Shown here: positions 13,285 through 64,000 of the stretch, in pieces
Layout of the letters: each line of letters starts with the position of its first letter
Numbering within the stretch: the stretch's first letter is position 1
NCBI GenBank assembly: GCA_001916065.1
Contig: MNRS01000019.1
Coordinates: 31,948-95,947 of the forward strand
DNA: 64,000 nt
DNA from: Clostridium sp. 28_17
Lineage (GTDB): Bacteria > Bacillota > Clostridia > TANB77 > CAG-508
Direction of reading: 5' to 3'
Translations under genes and position numbers: made by a program
The notes under the pieces: model-generated
What the model saw: the letters and a program-made list of their open reading frames with translations, nothing else
Told to the model about the DNA's origin: nothing
Databases searched by the model: none

Positions 13285-15171
13285 ATGGACAACGAAAAAT
13301 TTGGAAAATTCATAAAAAAATTAAGAAAAGAAAAAGGAATAACACAAAAAGAATTAGGAGAAAAATTAAATATTACAGATAAAGCAATATCCAAATGGGA
13401 AAGAGGATTAAGTTTTCCAGATATAACAATGCTAAATATATTAGCAGAATTTTTTGAAATTGATGTATCAGAATTATTAAATGGAGAAAAAGGAGCAAAA
13501 AAAGATATTGATATAGATAAAGAAATTTCTGAAGCAATAGAAAAATATAAAAATATTGAAGAAAAAAGAAAAAAGAAAATTAACAAAACAAAGAAAACAA
13601 TAGGAGTAATATCAACTATTATATTAATTATTTCATTATTAATACAAATTGCATATTTATTTGTATTGAAAAGACATAATTATGAGTATGTAATTGATAT
13701 TTTAGAATACATAATTAATCAAATAATTATAATTTCAGCTACAATGAGTTTGATTTTATTAACTAAAAAAGAAAAAATTAAGAATATAATTATATATATT
13801 CTCTGTATAATGTTTTCTGTAATTAATATTTCATTTATGTGTAACAATGGATTCAAAAATAAATGTATAATAAGTTTTTCAAATGATTTTTCAAATGAAC
13901 TTGTTGTTAAAACAAATAAAAATACAGGAGCAATAAAAATATATAGAAACCAAAAATTCTTTTTATTTGCAAAAGAAAAAGAGCAACTAGATTACGAATT
14001 AGATGGAAAAATAAAAAAACAATGGCTAACAAATGATGTATGTGGAATAACTTATAAAGATAAAAATGGTATATTACAAGAATATGTTGTTACATATGGA
14101 GATAGAGGCAATGGAATATCATATTATTATGTAACATCAGCATTAATAGGCGATTGGCAAGTATTCACACAATATGGTAATCCGACTCAAATGTTAGTTG
14201 ATAGTAAAGGTATAACAATAAAAAAGAATGAAAAAAGTGAACTTTTTACCTATGAAAATTGCAAACAATATGGAACAACAGCATTGGTATTATATAAAAA
14301 TGATATACCTAAATATATAATTGCATTAGATAAAAATTGTGAAATTGATGAAAAAACATATATTATAAAAAAAGGTGGAACAATAATATTATCTGAAATT
14401 TCAATGGATAAAACAATTTCTGAATCATTATATTGTATGACATTTAAAGATGAAAAAGATTTAGGTAATTATAGTGTTGTAAGTGTTGCAAAAGATAGTT
14501 ATAAAATTCAAGATGGAATAATGTATATAAGTTTTGATGGAAAAAATACAGTAGAAGTACCTGGAGATTTTTCAAAAATGGTAGATAGTTATAATGAATA
14601 CAATTATCAAATATCAAACGAAAAAACAATTTTTTATTATATAAAAGATTCAAAAAGATATTTAGTTTATTCTGATGATATGGGAAATAATTGGACTACT
14701 GTAGAGATAGAAAATGAGTCTTCAATACAAAATATACATTTTATAAATTCAAATATAGGATTTATGCTTAAATTTGAAGATGTTGCAATGGGAATAGCAT
14801 TTGGTAAAATTAGCAAAACTGTTGATGGAGGAAAAACTTGGAAAGATATATATTTTGGAATGGGAGATGAAAAGAAAATATTTAAGACATCTAGTCAAAT
14901 AAAATTTATTAGTGAAAATATTGGCTTTTTAACAATGCCTTCTGCTGGAGGAGAAACTTCTGAAATGTATATTACAAAAGATGGAGGAAATAGTTTTAAT
15001 AAATTAGAAATTATAAATAGTGATATTTATGATTATTATAATTTGCCAACATTTGAAGATGGAGTATTAAGTATAAAAATAACACAAGGTTCAGACGGAG
15101 ATTATAATGGTGGGGATTATAAGGTCTATTATTCAAAAGACTATGGTGATAGTTGGAGCTTGGAAAAATGA
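13285..15171 (+). CDS. Membrane-anchored XRE-family HTH regulator with extracytoplasmic BNR/Asp-box (Ycf48-like) domain
   Basis: N-terminal HTH (GITQKELGEKLNITDKAISKWERG), three TM segments, C-terminal repeats DDMGNNWT, DGGKTW, DGGNSF, DYGDSW. Confidence 0.65.
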   Translation: MDNEKFGKFIKKLRKEKGITQKELGEKLNITDKAISKWERGLSFPDITMLNILAEFFEIDVSELLNGEKGAKKDIDIDKEISEAIEKYKNIEEKRKKKINKTKKTIGVISTIILIISLLIQIAYLFVLKRHNYEYVIDILEYIINQIIIISATMSLILLTKKEKIKNIIIYILCIMFSVINISFMCNNGFKNKCIISFSNDFSNELVVKTNKNTGAIKIYRNQKFFLFAKEKEQLDYELDGKIKKQWLTNDVCGITYKDKNGILQEYVVTYGDRGNGISYYYVTSALIGDWQVFTQYGNPTQMLVDSKGITIKKNEKSELFTYENCKQYGTTALVLYKNDIPKYIIALDKNCEIDEKTYIIKKGGTIILSEISMDKTISESLYCMTFKDEKDLGNYSVVSVAKDSYKIQDGIMYISFDGKNTVEVPGDFSKMVDSYNEYNYQISNEKTIFYYIKDSKRYLVYSDDMGNNWTTVEIENESSIQNIHFINSNIGFMLKFEDVAMGIAFGKISKTVDGGKTWKDIYFGMGDEKKIFKTSSQIKFISENIGFLTMPSAGGETSEMYITKDGGNSFNKLEIINSDIYDYYNLPTFEDGVLSIKITQGSDGDYNGGDYKVYYSKDYGDSWSLEK

Positions 15172-57720: not shown

Positions 57721-57951
57721 ACAAAAACCCCTTTTCAATTCTCAATTTACAATCTATTTAATACATAAATAACAAAATTCTTATTGTACATACTAAAATG
57801 TATTTAATAGCAAAAAAAATATGCTTATTTTTTTATTAAAAATACTTGCTAAAAACCAATTTTAGTGATATAGTAACAAAGTACAAAAGGGAAAGTTAGT
57901 AACAAAAAATTTTCCACAATATCAAAAATAAACTTAGGAGGAATGTACCAA

Positions 57952-60699
57952 ATGAAATTTTTCAAAACATACAGCGAAAAAGAAGTAAAAAGGGTAATGC
58001 CAATAGTAAAGAAAATTAATGAATTAGAACCAGAAATGGAAAAATTAACAGACCACGAATTAAGAGGAAAAACAGAATATTTCAAAAAGCAATTAGCAGA
58101 TGGAAAAACATTAGATGATATATTACCAGAAGCATTTGCAGTTGTAAGAGAAGCCTCAAAAAGAGCATTAGGAATGAGACACTTTGATGTTCAATTAATA
58201 GGTGGAATTATATTACACCAAGGAAGAATTGCCGAAATGAAAACTGGTGAAGGAAAAACATTAGTTGCAACATTACCAGTATACTTAAATGCACTAGAAG
58301 GAAAAGGAGTTCATGTAATTACAGTAAACGACTACCTAGCAAAAAGAGATAGTGAATGGATGGGAAAATTATATAAATTTTTAGGACTTTCAGTAGGACT
58401 AGTAATTGCAGGAATGGACCCACAAGCAAAACAAAAAGCATATGCAGCAGATATCACATATGGTACAAACAACGAATTTGGATTTGATTATTTAAGAGAT
58501 AATATGGTAATCTATCAAAATCAATTGGTACAAAGAGGATTACATTATGCAATTGTCGATGAAATTGATAGTATTTTAATAGATGAAGCAAGAACACCAC
58601 TTATCATATCTGGTAGAGCAAACGAATCTTCAGATTTATATAAAAGAGCAGATAACTTCGTAAAAAAATTAGAAGCAAAAGTTATTGTAGAAGAAGATGT
58701 AAAAGATTTTGAACAAGCAGAAGACAACGAAAAATATGATTACATTGTAGACCTAAAAGCAAAATCTGCATCATTAACACAAAAAGGTATTAAAAAAGCA
58801 GAAGAATTCTTTAACCTAGAAAACTTCAACGACCTAGAAAATTCAACAATAGTACACCATGTAAACCAAGCACTAAGAGCAAATGGTGTAATGAAAAAAG
58901 ATATAGATTACATCGTAAAAGATGGAGAAGTTCTAATTGTAGATGAATTTACAGGACGTATCATGTATGGAAGAAGATACAACAATGGATTACATCAAGC
59001 AATTGAAGCAAAAGAAAAAGTCAAAATTGCAGACGAATCAAAAACACTTGCAACAATAACATTCCAAAACTTCTTTAGAATGTATGATAAATTATCTGGT
59101 ATGACTGGTACAGCCATGACAGAAGAGGCAGAATTTGAAGAAATATATAACTTAGACGTTGTTGAAATACCAACAAATAAACCTATGGTTAGAAAAGACG
59201 AAAATGATGTTATATACAAAAATGAAAGAGCAAAATTTAAAGCTGTTGTTGAAAGTGTTAAAGAAAGCCATGAAAAAGGACAACCAGTTCTAATTGGTAC
59301 AGTATCAATTGAAAAATCAGAAAAATTAAGCAAATTACTTGATAAAGAAAGAATACCACATGAAGTATTAAACGCAAAATCACATGAAAAAGAAGCTATG
59401 ATAGTTGCCCAAGCAGGTAAATTTGGTGCAGTTACAATTGCTACAAACATGGCAGGACGTGGTACTGACATTATGCTAGGTGGAAATAGCGAATACTTAG
59501 CAAAAGAAGAAATGAGAAAAAATAAAGTACCAGAAAACTTAATAGAAGAAGCAAACACATATTATGAAACAGACGACCAAGACATATTAAGAGCAAGAGA
59601 ACAATTCAATAAATTAGTTGAAAAATATGACGAAAAAATAAAAGAAGAAAAACAAAAAGTTATAGATGCAGGAGGTCTAAAAATAATTGGTACAGAAAGA
59701 CACGAATCAAGAAGAATTGACAACCAATTAAGAGGACGTTCTGGACGTCAAGGCGATGTCGGAGAATCAAGATTCTTTATCGGACTAGATGATGACTTAA
59801 TGAAAATCTTTGGCGGAGACGCAATAACAAAAGTTTACAATACATTAGGTGCAGACGAAGACATGCCAATTACTGCAAAATTAATATCAAAAACAGTTGC
59901 AAATGCTCAAAAGAAAGTTGAAGGTAGAAACTTCAGTATCCGTAAAAATGTATTAAAATATGATGATGTTATGAACGCACAAAGAGAAATTATTTACAAA
60001 CAAAGAAGAGAAGTTCTTGACGGAGAAGATATCCATAGCAACATATTAAATATGATAAATTCAATAGCAGAAGAAACAGTTGCAATGTTTGTTGAAGGTG
60101 AAGACGGAAAATCAATTAATGTAGAAGCTTTAAATACAGAAATAACAAACGAATTTGGTTTAGAAATGTATGACTTCATTAAAGAACATGAAAATGATTC
60201 AAATGCAATTATAGAAGAATTAGAAAAACAAGCATTAAACAAATATCAAGCAAAAGAAGAAGAAATTACTTCTGAAAAAATGAGAGAACTTGAAAGAGTT
60301 GTAATGCTTAAAGTTGTTGACGAAAAATGGATGAACCATATTGATAATATGGACGAATTAAAAAATGGTATCGGATTAAGAGCTTACGGACAACAAGATC
60401 CAGTTGTTAAATACAGAATGGAAGGTATGGATATGTTTGAAGAAATGATTGCAAACATAAAAGTAGATGTTGTTAAAATTCTTATGAATATCAGAAGACA
60501 AAATGGTGAAGTTAAAAGACAAGAAGCAGTAAAAATTACAGGTGCAGCATTAGAAGCTATCAATAGTGTTGATGGTGGTAAAAAAATAAATACTCCTGAA
60601 TATAGTCAGACAGTTGTAAATGAAGGACCAAAAGTTGGTAGAAATGACCCATGTCCATGTGGAAGCGGCAAAAAGTATAAAAACTGTTGTGGAAAGTAA
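57952..60699 (+). CDS. secA: Preprotein translocase ATPase SecA
   Basis: DEAD-like motor motifs ([28 protein letters not shown]), C-terminal Zn finger [15 protein letters not shown]. Confidence 0.9.
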
Positions 60700-60790
60700 C
60701 ATAAAATAAGTGAAGGATTTAAATTTTAAAAAAGAGAAATAGGTTTGAGTTTTATAACTTGTCTACGAAATATTAAAAAAATAAGTGAAA

Positions 60791-60831
60791 AAGGATGGGG
60801 AAAACATTTTAAATGTAGACATCCTTTTTTT
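60791..60831 (+). terminator. Rho-independent terminator after secA
   Basis: AAGGATG-N21-CATCCTT then T7. Confidence 0.6.
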
Positions 60832-60867
60832 GATAATTAATATAAAATATATTTAGGAGTTGATAAT

Positions 60868-61392
60868 ATGCTAAGTCCAAAATTAGAAACAGAAAGATTA
60901 ATATTAAGAAGATATGAAGAAACCGATATAGATATGCAATATGAAGTATTAACAGATAACAGATTAGCAGAATATATAAAGTTTCCTAACTTAACAAAAG
61001 AAGAAGAACTAGAATGCATTAAAGATTGGATTAAAAATGCAGATGATTCAAAATATGAAAAATGGGTAATTACTTTAAAAAGTGATAATACTCCTATTGG
61101 GAATATATCTGTAAATGGAATTGAAAAAAGACATAACTATTGTAACGTTGGTTATGTAATATTGTATGCTTATTGGGGAAAAGGTTATGCATCAGAAGCA
61201 TTAAAGGTTGTATCGGATTATTTGTTAGAAAGTGGATATTATTTAGTTGAGTGTTCTTGCAATGAATTAAATAAACAATCATCTAGAGTAATGGAAAAAG
61301 CTGGTTTTAAAAAAGATGGTTATATTGCTAATAGAAGACTTAATAAAGATGGAACATATTCTGGAGTAGAATATTATAGTAAGACAAAATAG
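60868..61392 (+). CDS. GNAT family N-acetyltransferase (RimJ/RimL-like)
   Basis: TERLILRRYEETD N-term; acetyl-CoA motif YWGKGYASEAL. Confidence 0.75.
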   Translation: MLSPKLETERLILRRYEETDIDMQYEVLTDNRLAEYIKFPNLTKEEELECIKDWIKNADDSKYEKWVITLKSDNTPIGNISVNGIEKRHNYCNVGYVILYAYWGKGYASEALKVVSDYLLESGYYLVECSCNELNKQSSRVMEKAGFKKDGYIANRRLNKDGTYSGVEYYSKTK

Positions 61393-61923
61393 TAAAAATA
61401 TATTTGCTGAATGTTCTATTGATTATGATAAAAATAGTGATACTGCAATAACTTTTTATAAAACTATTCAAAATAAATTTCATTATGCAATTATTGGAAA
61501 CACTGCTGCTGAAATAGTTTATAAAAGAGTGGATTTTAAAAAAGAAAATATGGGACTTACTACCTGAGAAAATTCACCTGATGGGAAGATTTTAAAATCT
61601 GATGTAATTATTTCCAAGAACTATTTAAATGAACAAGAAATTAAAAATTTAAATAATTTAGTAAACTTATTTTTGGATATCGCTGAAAATAATGTAGAAA
61701 GAAGTATAACAATGTATATGGAAGATTGGAAAAATGAAGTAGATAATGCCCTAAAAGTTTTCCATTATGAAGTTTTATAAGGAAAAGGGAAAATCTCACA
61801 TAAACAAGCAGTAGAAAGAGCGGAAAATGAATATGAAAAATATAAAGCTATACAGGATAAGAATTATGTGTCAGATTTTGATAGACTATTAAGTGAAACA
61901 AAGCAAATTGAAAATAAATAAAT
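61393..61923 (+). pseudogene. RhuM-family virulence-protein gene remnant (N-terminus missing, internal TGA and TAA)
   Basis: Three reading segments TAAEIVYKRVDFKKENMGLTT*ENSPDGKILKSDVIISKNYLNEQEIKNLNNLVNLFLDIAENN...FHYEVL*GKGKISHKQAVERAENEYEKYKAIQDKNYVSDFDRL match RhuM C-terminal half. Confidence 0.5.
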
Positions 61924-62130
61924 TGCACATTTGATAAAAAAATTGATCTAATCATATTAGATGAACGGATGTGGACAATGTCCACAATATGTCCACGTTG
62001 GAAAAATACTTATAGTACAGGTAATATCATAAATACAAATAATATAGATGTTACCTAGTCTGACAAATAAGGAAATACGAATAATACTATAAGTATAGAT
62101 AGTATTAATAATATGGGAGAATCAACTACA

Positions 62131-62215
62131 TGTGGTTCAGGGAAGAAATACAAAAATTGTTGTGGAAAGTAGCTTAAAATAAGGGAAAAGTTGAATTTAA
62201 GAAAGATAACAAATT
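62131..62215 (+). other. Degenerate duplicate of the secA 3' end and downstream flank
   Basis: TGTGGTTCAGGGAAGAAATACAAAAATTGTTGTGGAAAGTAG encodes [13 protein letters not shown]; next 40 bp resemble flank after genuine secA stop. Confidence 0.5.
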
Positions 62216-62269
62216 TGTTGTTTGTCACCCATCAAATAAAAATGTGGACAAAATCCATTGAAATTAAAA

Positions 62270-62350
62270 GATGTCAGCAAAAAGTAATTTGTTGACATCT
62301 TTTTTGGATTTATGAAAACCCCGCGTAAAACACGGGGTTTTCATAAATCC
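62270..62350. terminator. Two consecutive hairpin terminators
   Basis: GATGTCAG-N14-TTGACATC plus T6; then perfect GGATTTATGAAAACCCCGCG...CGGGGTTTTCATAAATCC. Confidence 0.55.
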
Positions 62351-62405
62351 AAAAACATCATGGCAGAAATGCTCCTACCATGATGTCCGTACTTCAGAAC
62401 AAATA

Positions 62406-63470
62406 TTACTCTTCCTCGGTACTCCAGTCGAATTCTCCTGTAACTTTTTCATTGAACAGGTCGAAAGGCCAGTTATGCAGATATTCCTTTGATACTTCTC
62501 CAGATTCTCTGTCATAAACATAGCGCTGTTTCAACAGCTTGTCGTCCAAATCATAAGCCTCGAGGACGACTTTTTTTGCAGATGCAATCAGTTCAGCAGA
62601 GATACCATCATTGTCAGAATTGTCGAACATTCCTAACCAACAAGAACATTCTCTAACTTCTGTTGCAAGCTTTGGATTCGGCATAAGGTAAGCAGTGTAT
62701 TCATGCCAACCCTGGGAATAAATCTTCTTAAGTCTGCTATGTTTTCTCGGATCGAGATGTCCTGCAGACAAACCAGAAAGATATTCAATTCCCGTTTCAG
62801 GAGCAGTACACAGTACCTTTGCGACATTGCAGCAACCACTAGGCCAAATCAGATTCGTGTTCCCATCTTGGTACATAACAGAAAATTCTGAATCATCATC
62901 TGCAACCAGAGTGATTTTCTTGAATTCTCCTCCGAAACTCATACCGCCTGAATACCAAAGTTTATCACCAATACGATTGGCAATGCACTTTGGATCATGT
63001 GCCTGACGATAAGCCTCTGCCGCTGCTTCAGCTTCTTTTCTTGCAACATCTTCTGCACGAGCTTTACCAGCATCATCTAAAGGCAACATATCAAGATATT
63101 TGCTAATATCAGAACGCTTGATGATAAAGTAGTGTGCTCCAGACATAGAATAGTCAGGAATTACAATTTCATCGCGATAGTGAATCGGATAATCTCCTCC
63201 GGGAATATTGACCGGCTCCAATCCTGCCTCATGCAGTGCTCTCCGAAGGCGAGGCCAAAACTTAACATTGTTTCCAAGCTTTTTGCCCGAAATAACTTCT
63301 CTAGCTTGCCGAAGATGTAAAAAACCACCTTTGCAATACTCTCCAACGACATAAGCATCGCAGTTGAACTGATACTTCCCATTGTCTAACCGAGTTACAA
63401 GGACCTCAGCTGTTTCGCCAAGGATGTGCTTAATCGTTACCTGTGTGTTCTTTTTTATAGTCTTCATCAT
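62406..63470 (-). CDS. Hypothetical protein on a GC-rich (about 43-45%) island, likely horizontally acquired
   Basis: Sharp compositional shift vs about 27% background; AGGAGG RBS; start MMKTIKKNTQ; no motif recognised. Confidence 0.5.
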   Translation of the reverse strand: MMKTIKKNTQVTIKHILGETAEVLVTRLDNGKYQFNCDAYVVGEYCKGGFLHLRQAREVISGKKLGNNVKFWPRLRRALHEAGLEPVNIPGGDYPIHYRDEIVIPDYSMSGAHYFIIKRSDISKYLDMLPLDDAGKARAEDVARKEAEAAAEAYRQAHDPKCIANRIGDKLWYSGGMSFGGEFKKITLVADDDSEFSVMYQDGNTNLIWPSGCCNVAKVLCTAPETGIEYLSGLSAGHLDPRKHSRLKKIYSQGWHEYTAYLMPNPKLATEVRECSCWLGMFDNSDNDGISAELIASAKKVVLEAYDLDDKLLKQRYVYDRESGEVSKEYLHNWPFDLFNEKVTGEFDWSTEEE

Positions 63471-63937
63471 ATTGAAGTCCTCCTTATAAAATAGTATTTT
63501 ATTTGCCCAATGAAGTAACATTAAACTTAATCAAAGTTGTTAATAAACAAAATTTAATCAATGATAAGCTTAATTTTACAACACTTTGCATACTTTAATT
63601 ATACCAGATTTTATGTAAAATTTCAACAATATCATTCATTTATTTTTTTAATATAACCTATAAGAATTACTTATGACAAATTCTTTACAAATTGTTGCAC
63701 AAAATTTAATAAAACGATATAATAATATTGAATTATTGTAGATTAAAATAAGTTTCAAAGAAATGAGGGAATAAACATGGCTAATAATAAACCTTTAAAG
63801 GGCTTTCAAGGAATATTTTTAGAAAAAGAGATAGAACAGCAGTTGATAGCTTTACAAAAAAATAGATAATAATGAAATGAAAAAGGTAATGAAATTTGGT
63901 TCTGAAAATTTTAAATATATAAAATTATATATAAAAA

Positions 63938-63962
63938 TGCAGTCGAATGACTGCATTTTTTG
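63938..63962 (+). terminator. Rho-independent terminator
   Basis: TGCAGTCGAATGACTGCA then T7. Confidence 0.5.
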
Positions 63963-64000
63963 TTACAATTTTAATATCCTAAATTTTTTTAATTTCCAAA

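Follow-up and report, generated by a model that had tools for sequence, protein, structure and literature searches.

A probable relic of tandem site-specific integrations in the 3′ end of secA from Clostridium sp. 28_17

Elements that are integrative and conjugative (ICEs), and those that are integrative and mobilizable (IMEs), have target genes that include rpsI, rplL, lysS and tRNA genes, and in staphylococci the SCCmec and pseudo-SCC forms of the staphylococcal cassette chromosome (SCC) make up composite islands at the 3′ end of rlmH (orfX). Here we describe a comparable arrangement behind secA in a stretch of 64,000 nucleotides from Clostridium sp. 28_17 (contig MNRS01000019.1, positions 31,948 to 95,947 of the forward strand), referred to below as the window. 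In it, secA is followed by a small island that contains a second copy of the end of the gene, and we regard it as highly probable that this island holds the decayed products of at least two tandem site-specific integrations into the secA tail, now an integrase-less relic.

A close parallel is offered by the cis-mobilizable elements (CIMEs) which, together with tandem accretion of ICE and IME relatives, are known from the fda 3′ end of Streptococcus thermophilus (ICESt1/ICESt3 family; Pavlovic 2004 and Bellanger 2011, summarized in section 2.3 of PMC5704250). The model published there has three steps, in which integration is followed by decay to a CIME, with att sites kept and the integrase lost, and then by accretion at the att site. 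The structure of the window matches this sequence of events. Like the secA units, the fda CIMEs keep attL and attR without an integrase, stand in tandem arrays at the end of a conserved gene and include neighbours fused by deletion, and mobilization in cis or in trans by the integrase of a neighbour is possible for both. They differ in target, fda as against the zinc-finger tail of SecA, and in that mobility of the secA units is read solely from their distribution. The intact relatives of the secA elements differ further from the fda family in being 3-4 kb long, in consisting of an integrase with one or two genes of cargo, and in lacking any module for conjugation or a relaxase. The tyrosine-integrase IMEs and ICEs of Firmicutes with conserved-gene 3′ ends as targets (PMC5357655, PMC4701971) are alike in having integrases with arm-binding, SAM-like and catalytic domains, and an attP that carries the replaced gene end so that the target gene stays intact. 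The copy in the window differs from them in having neither an integrase nor a mobilization gene. Full-text literature searches brought up no paper in which the secA 3′ end is named as an attachment site, and the IME and ICE papers that came up do not mention secA as a target; this is not proof of absence. Two apparent matches, on SecA2-SecY2 and Helicobacter, were irrelevant. The kind of structure is known; its target gene was not found described.

Two further systems bear a more distant likeness. The SCC family shares the use of a housekeeping-gene 3′ end as landing pad, arrays separated by direct repeats, recombinase-less units beside recombinase-bearing ones, and accessory, resistance or defence cargo, but it employs Ccr serine recombinases and repeats of 15-18 bp without long arms, whereas the secA family has a tyrosine integrase and a 170-nt arm. 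Integron cassette arrays are alike in layout only, with recombinase-less units of one to three genes and a repeated site on a fixed platform. Integron membership was rejected, as there is no attC, attI/Pc or IntI (the last looked for by Pfam only) and each repeat is a copy of the end of a coding gene. The recombinases of the secA elements are lambda/Tn916-like Int proteins, and their repeats have long asymmetric arms.

In the window, secA lies on the forward strand at 57943-60699 (open reading frame (ORF) and Pfam evidence) and encodes a C-terminus with SecA_SW and SEC-C domains. Its last 42 nt, TGTGG...GGAAAGTAA at 60658-60699, form core copy 1, the attL core, which fits a degenerate pattern with no mismatches; core copy 2, which lies on the same strand at 62131-62172 and like copy 1 encodes 13 residues, was recovered by repeat search, pattern match and alignment. 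The repeat search pairs 60656-60725 with 62129-62198 (70 nt, 76% identity, spacing 1473), and the repetition of the secA 3′ end and flank reaches 62209 (76% over 83 nt from 62129), extending about 37 nt beyond the stop codon. When 60640-60760 was compared with the whole window by blastn, 62129-62209 was the best match at E 4e-11, with the runner-up at E 0.02; the local alignment score of 41 compares with 12.5 ± 2.0 and a maximum of 25 in 2000 shuffles (z about 14). A first-pass annotation of this DNA had proposed such a second tail with a similar flank, and these figures bear it out. The pentamer TGTGG with which each core begins consists of the second Cys codon and the following GG of the SecA CPCG zinc-finger motif. 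The two cores thus stand as the direct repeats that are looked for in an integrative element, flanking a unit referred to here as element 1 (60658-62172). There is no tRNA gene and no Rfam family, Rfam giving sub-threshold chance matches on a palindrome only.

The first of the two cores is itself of foreign origin on the evidence of other loci (designated by L numbers). Positions 60629-61489 of the window (861 nt) are 98.5% identical to L089, L090 and L096, whose SecA proteins of 828 residues are 48% identical to that of the window. In L092 the identity, 98.3% over 1171 nt, starts with the second core of that locus exactly at 60658 of the window, and immediately upstream in L092 lies the conserved right arm described below. 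Position 60658 is where the identity of the window with L089 and L092 switches. Because the tail from TGTGG onwards is 98-100% identical in hosts with 48%-identical SecA, the target gene is taken to have been reconstituted by sequence that the element brought with it. The closest host relatives, L001-L005, have a SecA ending in CCG[KR]N[QK] and a stop, unlike the CCGK and stop of the window. Judged from these alignments, the current secA tail and terminator are supplied by the element and not native, the gene being host-derived to about 60657 and its last 14 codons, from 60658, element-supplied. In a separate observation, in three species-level relatives with SecA 97-98% identical, L003 (about 2902), L004 (about 12717) and L005 (9061-9065), the insertion of a single base makes GCCGG of TGTGG and puts the zinc-finger codons out of frame, giving a predicted end of ...DPCICRFRKKI and a stop; an integrase cluster follows secA in none of them (0/3). 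The change could be a loss of attB or an error common to the assemblies.

The second core has a flank of its own kind. The 131 nt that follow it, 62173-62303 on the forward strand, are 89% identical to the sequence after the first core of L044 (its attL flank), carry TGTGGACA at 62243-50 and end in a terminator at 62266-62303 (terminator scan); the sequence after TGTGG is given as TTCAGGGAAG. This X-type left arm (P′) occurs after four different secA genes (L136, L138, L143, L044) and belongs to elements of the layout u266-integrase-u407 and integrase-rhuM. These matches decide against the alternative that has most to recommend it, a single insertion of one GNAT and rhuM element into secA with copy 2 and its flank as the displaced original gene end. 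The order secA, cargo, second tail is what one integration predicts, and a terminator follows copy 2 as at a native gene end, but the flank of copy 2 is the element-specific arm found beside u266-integrase-u407 in the four hosts just named, native ends in L001-L005 differ from the CCGK, stop, LKI read at copy 2, and L127 contains the whole composite 60652-62303 at 91% identity in a different context. A single insertion is accordingly improbable in our estimation, and copy 2 with 62173-62303 is, on the sequence matches, the left arm of a second element rather than a displaced native end. Since this flank belongs to a second element, at least two integration events would be recorded. Core copy 2 would then serve both as attR of element 1 and as attL of element 2, of which the body is lost, and the junction 61962-62303, reading right arm-core-left arm, would be attP-like, as expected between tandem elements. 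Such junctions also occur in L092 and L097; all lie within chromosomal contigs, and tandem arrays account for them just as well as excision would. The first-pass description of a genuine secA end followed by a degenerate copy therefore stands in that both copies are real, but its "genuine" tail is the element-supplied one and its degenerate copy is the left arm of the second element.

Element 1 begins with a left arm of another type. This Y-type arm (P′; 60700-60867, forward strand) is 98-100% identical after the core in L089, L090, L092 and L096, its sequence right after TGTGG is given as AAGCGGCAAAAAG, and as read from the sequence it contains a terminator-like hairpin (60788-60796 with 60820-60828) and a T run, together with degenerate motif sites TGTCTAC (60760-66) and TGTAGACA (60814-21). 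Canonical Y arms with TGTCCAC are present in L080, L101, L109, L117 and L127, that of L109 also with TGTGGACA. There follows an intact GNAT acetyltransferase gene (60868-61392, forward strand; PF13302, E 2e-27) without a specific NCBIfam assignment, and then a rhuM pseudogene (61394-61921, forward strand) that corresponds to the C-terminal 60% of the gene (PF13310 profile positions 100-250 of 252, E 8e-57 with stops read through) and is interrupted by TGA at 61565-67 and TAA at 61778-80. The right arm (P arm) at 61962-62130, forward strand, closes the element with TGTGGACA (61970-77), TGTCCACA (61979-86) and TGTCCAC (61989-95). TGTGGACA occurs only three times in the 64 kb, at 61970 and 62243 on the forward and at 61979 on the reverse strand, the TGTCCAC at 61989-61995 being a fourth site. 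The rhuM remnant and right arm (61385-62167) are 91-93% identical in DNA to L100, L105, L110 and L140, where a full-length rhuM stands directly before the right arm and, in L100 and L105, an integrase lies just upstream.

The junction between the GNAT stop and mid-rhuM is common to the window, L089, L092, L093 and L127, and the stops are lineage-specific, L092 having TGG and GAA in their place. As the junction is common to these loci and the stops are not, one deletion is likely to have joined a unit of Y arm and GNAT gene to the right-hand end of an integrase-rhuM element; the product would then have spread and would now be decaying independently in each lineage. No fewer than three other contexts contain it, with DNA identities of 91-98%, namely after the 48%-identical secA (L089/L090/L096), inside arrays (L092, L093) and in L127. 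The GNAT protein itself is identical in all 174 of 174 residues downstream of secA or in secA-tail arrays in L089, L090, L092, L093 and L096, and the exact protein is indexed in 360 blocks of the genome collection. The GNAT distribution points to a very recent and wide horizontal spread of the cassette, which may have proceeded by mobilization in trans or by co-excision. No integrase or integrase remnant was found in the 64-kb window by tblastn with four integrase queries, so that the integrase expected of an integrative element is present in homologous elements elsewhere and missing here. The picture of a decayed cargo without integrase is upheld by the rhuM stops and by this search, though not for the GNAT gene, which is intact. 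With attL and attR kept, integration and transfer genes gone and a deletion origin, element 1 has on sequence the features of a CIME and resembles an integrase-less, CIME-like derivative.

The surroundings of secA were compared over about 150 related loci, 80 of them from a SecA scan of the genome collection (uncultured gut Clostridia), with ORFs of the 80 loci clustered for synteny. Synteny upstream of secA is conserved, and the downstream anchor consists of prfB, an aspartate-kinase-like gene and four more clusters. Between them, 8 loci have a secA-to-prfB distance of 137-326 nt and 28 loci one of 564-9609 nt, and 22 further loci have no prfB within the available 8.9-10 kb; overall the interval extends from 137 nt to beyond 9.9 kb. 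The gene most frequently found in first place after secA encodes a tyrosine integrase (Arm-DNA-bind_4, Phage_int_SAM_3 and Phage_integrase), and in 15 of the 80 loci it starts 107-270 nt after the secA stop. A MobV-type relaxase (Pfam Mob_Pre) and an AAA_25 ATPase are encoded by some of the adjacent elements (L001, L019, L072), together with a small helix-turn-helix protein, a putative excisionase. A degenerate pattern for 35 nt of the secA tail revealed extra cores in the window and in eight loci of the genome set (L020, L029, L043, L044, L046, L049, L062, L063), with no match in 687 kb of shuffled sequence, and arrays reach three copies in L093 and four in L092. All extra cores lie on the secA strand downstream of secA and start exactly at TGTGG, and the sequence 5′ of them is unrelated to secA. 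Intact elements between two cores measure 4.5 kb in L043 (integrase, NUDIX, DUF3800), 3.1 kb in L062 (integrase, NUDIX, HAD), 3.76 kb in L136/L138/L143 and 4.2 kb in L100/L105 (integrase-rhuM-right arm); integrase-less or decayed ones are seen in L049 (1.1 kb), L046 (Septu PtuA/PtuB) and L020 (YhcG nuclease). The secA-prfB interval is, on this comparative evidence, an attachment-site hotspot in this lineage of gut Clostridia.

In its behaviour it also resembles a small island of accessory and defence genes. Among the cargo carried by secA-tail units (L046, 12652-14598; L044, 16632-17684; the L092 and L093 arrays) are Septu PtuA/PtuB and PDC-S61, a PADLOC candidate defence gene, besides several GNATs, APH/choline-kinase-like, bile-salt-hydrolase-like CBAH, NUDIX, HAD and radical-SAM proteins and the YhcG nuclease. 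In L029 (2810-2921) two cores stand only 77 nt from each other and 42 nt of left arm lie between, as if an element had been deleted almost completely and a solo arm had stayed behind.

These comparisons carry much of what the first-pass annotation had put forward: the hotspot after secA is seen in the variable interval and adjoining integrases, duplication of the target 3′ end by site-specific elements in the uniform strand, position and TGTGG start of the extra tails, and the comparison of secA downstream regions that it had called for yielded variable intervals and recurring cores, with all 24 contigs of the same SecA alike. They also bear on the proposal that the tail was duplicated locally, by replication slippage or unequal homologous recombination without a site-specific recombinase, and that the cargo came later. 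Such an origin would suit a window without an integrase, beside which a 1.34-kb module arrived by some other route, but the TGTGG boundary is identical across unrelated hosts and cargo, the extra copies always have the conserved 170-nt right arm in front of them, integrases adjoin the first copy, and the same element occupies the same site in hosts with 48%-identical SecA; we consider it very unlikely. Least credible, already deemed unlikely in the earlier annotation and now refuted, is that copy 2 is a fragment of an unrelated gene with a SEC-C motif or a chance match in AT-rich DNA: the motif (PF02810) also occurs at the C-terminus of proteins other than SecA and the 20-residue peptide alone matches it, but the similarity runs on into the non-coding flank, no ORF of at least 30 residues in the window's ORF list enters copy 2, and the same truncated copy, with the same start and strand, recurs downstream of secA in dozens of loci and never in shuffled sequence.

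Returning to tandem site-specific integration, the anatomy of the attachment site can be read from the parts that stay constant as their neighbours change. The right arm (61962-62130, 170 nt) is 89% identical to the sequence before two L044 cores and 81% identical to that before core 2 of L092, and it is kept despite three different upstream gene contexts in the window, L044 and L092. A metagenome scan with the TGTGGACA-cluster motif returned 48 loci, and in 45 of them a core follows at a distance of about 132 nt downstream. The arm is conserved, across 40 distinct sequences (the window and 39 metagenome loci), to ...ATAATATGGGAGCATCCACTACA|TGTGG, its end adjoining the pentamer being given as ..GGGAGAATCAACTACA, and beyond the core the sequences diverge. 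Being conserved to the left of the core and divergent to the right of it, the 170-nt block would be the right end of the element, which accords with the earlier suggestion that its motif cluster represents recombinase arm sites. The left arms hold the replacement codons, stop and terminator and one or two sites like TGTCCAC or TGTGGACA. The secA codons TGTCCA-TGTGGA resemble both orientations of the TGTGGACA-type motif, and from this resemblance the arm repeats may be related to core-type sites.

The crossover point is indicated by one 3.76-kb element (X arm, u266, integrase, u407, right arm) that stands after four secA genes, in L136, L138, L143 and L044. At its attL the sequence to the left of TG(T/C)GG is host-specific and that to the right element-specific, and at attR the order is reversed; this switch in four hosts places strand exchange at or next to TGTGG. 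One informative polymorphism in L136, TGCGG against TGTGG, speaks for an exchange to the right of the pentamer's third base. We envisage a family of elements of about 3-4 kb whose tyrosine integrase, with an N-terminal arm-binding domain, would recombine attP with the last 42 nt of secA, attP comprising the 170-nt right arm with its TGTGGACA/TGTCCACA sites, the core and the left arm. Since the left arm carries the replacement secA codons, the stop and the terminator, integration would rebuild secA and leave a second tail at the far end of the element. Element 1 would be a deletion fusion of the Y arm and GNAT cassette with the rhuM 3′ half and right arm, element 2 would survive as its X-type left arm only (62131-62303), and an independently acquired foreign module and filler, to about 63900, would follow it. 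In this account the anatomy, homologies, breakpoints and distribution are observed, and the chemistry of recombination, the sequence of events and the spread of the integrase-less unit in trans or by co-excision are inferred.

Several points weigh against this reconstruction. The motif sites in the Y arm of the window are mutated (TGTCTAC and TGTAGACA), and the finding that the TGTGGACA cluster is conserved in the right arm has some circularity, the cluster having served as the metagenome search pattern; independent support for the arm comes from the rest of its length and from the left-arm sites. The exact overlap region depends on very few informative polymorphisms. No core or right arm is present at the right end of the island (about 63900), so that element 2 and the right boundary are reconstructed by assuming deletions. 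Among the 24 contigs with identical SecA there is no within-species polymorphism for presence or absence. Finally, as the window has no integrase, excisionase or circular form, activity of the element cannot be shown, and the feature is probably an inert relic.

The remainder of the island lies to the right of element 2. A near-perfect palindrome of 55 nt (62301-62355) stands between two convergent terminators; it is unique in the window, its 26-nt arms are 96% complementary, and each flanking terminator is followed by the same TTGGATTTAT tail. Overlapping its end, a foreign module of 1.34 kb (62344-63683, reverse strand) stands out by its GC content of about 41%, against 28% for the genome, and is 90% identical in DNA to an unrelated chromosomal context beside an rve fragment and a Bro-N gene. 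It contains a 354-residue ORF (62406-63470, reverse strand) with its own promoter and terminator, for which there was no Pfam, NCBIfam or PADLOC match. The AlphaFold model of this protein is confident (pLDDT 93, pTM 0.67), and comparison with PDB and BFVD structures yielded no neighbour (best E 0.017, TM at most 0.14). Many of its homologues lie on tiny contigs, as is seen with repeated or mobile DNA. AT-rich filler (63684-63900) completes the island; a third degenerate core at 63738-63752 (GTAGATTAAAATAAG) was rejected, its local score of 13 falling below background matches of 16-17.

The right boundary, at about 63900/63901, comes from L005, which has a 98%-identical SecA and the same upstream synteny and in which the secA flank is joined to sequence 100% identical to 63901-64000. 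From this empty-site junction the island extends over about 60658-63900, and the first-pass span of 60700-62220, whose features are confirmed, falls short of it and omits the foreign gene. Presence and absence thus vary among relatives, L005 being empty and the interval variable in size. Within the species the same island was found in 24 of 24 contigs read that encode the identical 915-residue SecA (a 918-residue form is not on record), and the same layout is found in L091, L094, L095 (GCA_037069425.1), L116 and L137 at 99.4-99.9% identity, so that the island appears to be fixed in this species.

The integrases of the X-arm elements have a feature of their own. In 17 loci (L044 and L070, and from metagenomes L097, L098, L100, L101, L105, L115, L124, L125, L130, L134, L136, L138, L139, L142 and L143) the gene is split at an invariant run of eight A residues (A8), TTTGAA[CT]TAAAAAAAAC[AG]AT, the frameshift region being given as TTTGAACTAAAAAAAACAAT. 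Two codons beyond the run comes the stop of ORF-A, which has about 173 residues and contains the arm-binding and SAM-like domains; ORF-B, of about 240 residues with the catalytic domain, follows in the -1 frame. Both stay open across 13 full sequences of 76-100% amino-acid identity and are under purifying selection, with dN/dS, one nearly identical pair excepted, of 0.02-0.16 for ORF-A and 0.17-0.36 for ORF-B at dS of up to 1.2. Over 97% of its length the -1 fusion can be aligned without a break to unsplit phage integrases, and it is likewise colinear with the unsplit secA-adjacent integrase of L009. The split looks like programmed -1 frameshifting or transcriptional slippage, to judge from these reading frames, and a limited literature search gave no precedent for such frameshifting in tyrosine integrases. 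As no xis gene is evident, the truncated arm- and core-binding product might act as a built-in directionality or regulatory factor. The L044 integrase (13744-14990, A8 run at about 14249-14256) carries an extra nonsense codon. No phage with this attP was found by blastn among 50,697 phage records, and the nearest phage integrases, of C. difficile phages, are 33-34% identical.

A wider proposal, which we advance tentatively and hold to be a good deal less probable than the history of the island itself, is that the SecA zinc-finger tail could be a broad-host-range landing pad for undescribed miniature integrative elements in gut Firmicutes. Such elements would assemble cargo units of one to three genes (GNATs, NUDIX, Septu, PDC-S61, rhuM) into arrays like those of integrons, units without an integrase, the GNAT unit of the window among them, would still be moved in trans between distantly related hosts, and the integrase would be made by conserved -1 recoding at A8, giving truncated and full-length forms.

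The feature in the window is of value mainly as an entry point to its family of elements. Should the conserved integrase frameshift prove real, it would give a tyrosine recombinase an uncommon mode of regulation, and the att arms with their compact integrases are candidate tools for site-specific integration. For those who annotate genomes, the last 14 codons, stop and terminator of secA can be derived from an element, and the secA-prfB interval is a place to seek accessory and anti-phage genes in uncultured Clostridia. The finding exposes the secA tail as a recurrent integration site: its nearly invariant codons would present the same attB in hosts whose SecA proteins are 48% identical, which would explain how an identical GNAT gene comes to stand after secA in distantly related gut bacteria.

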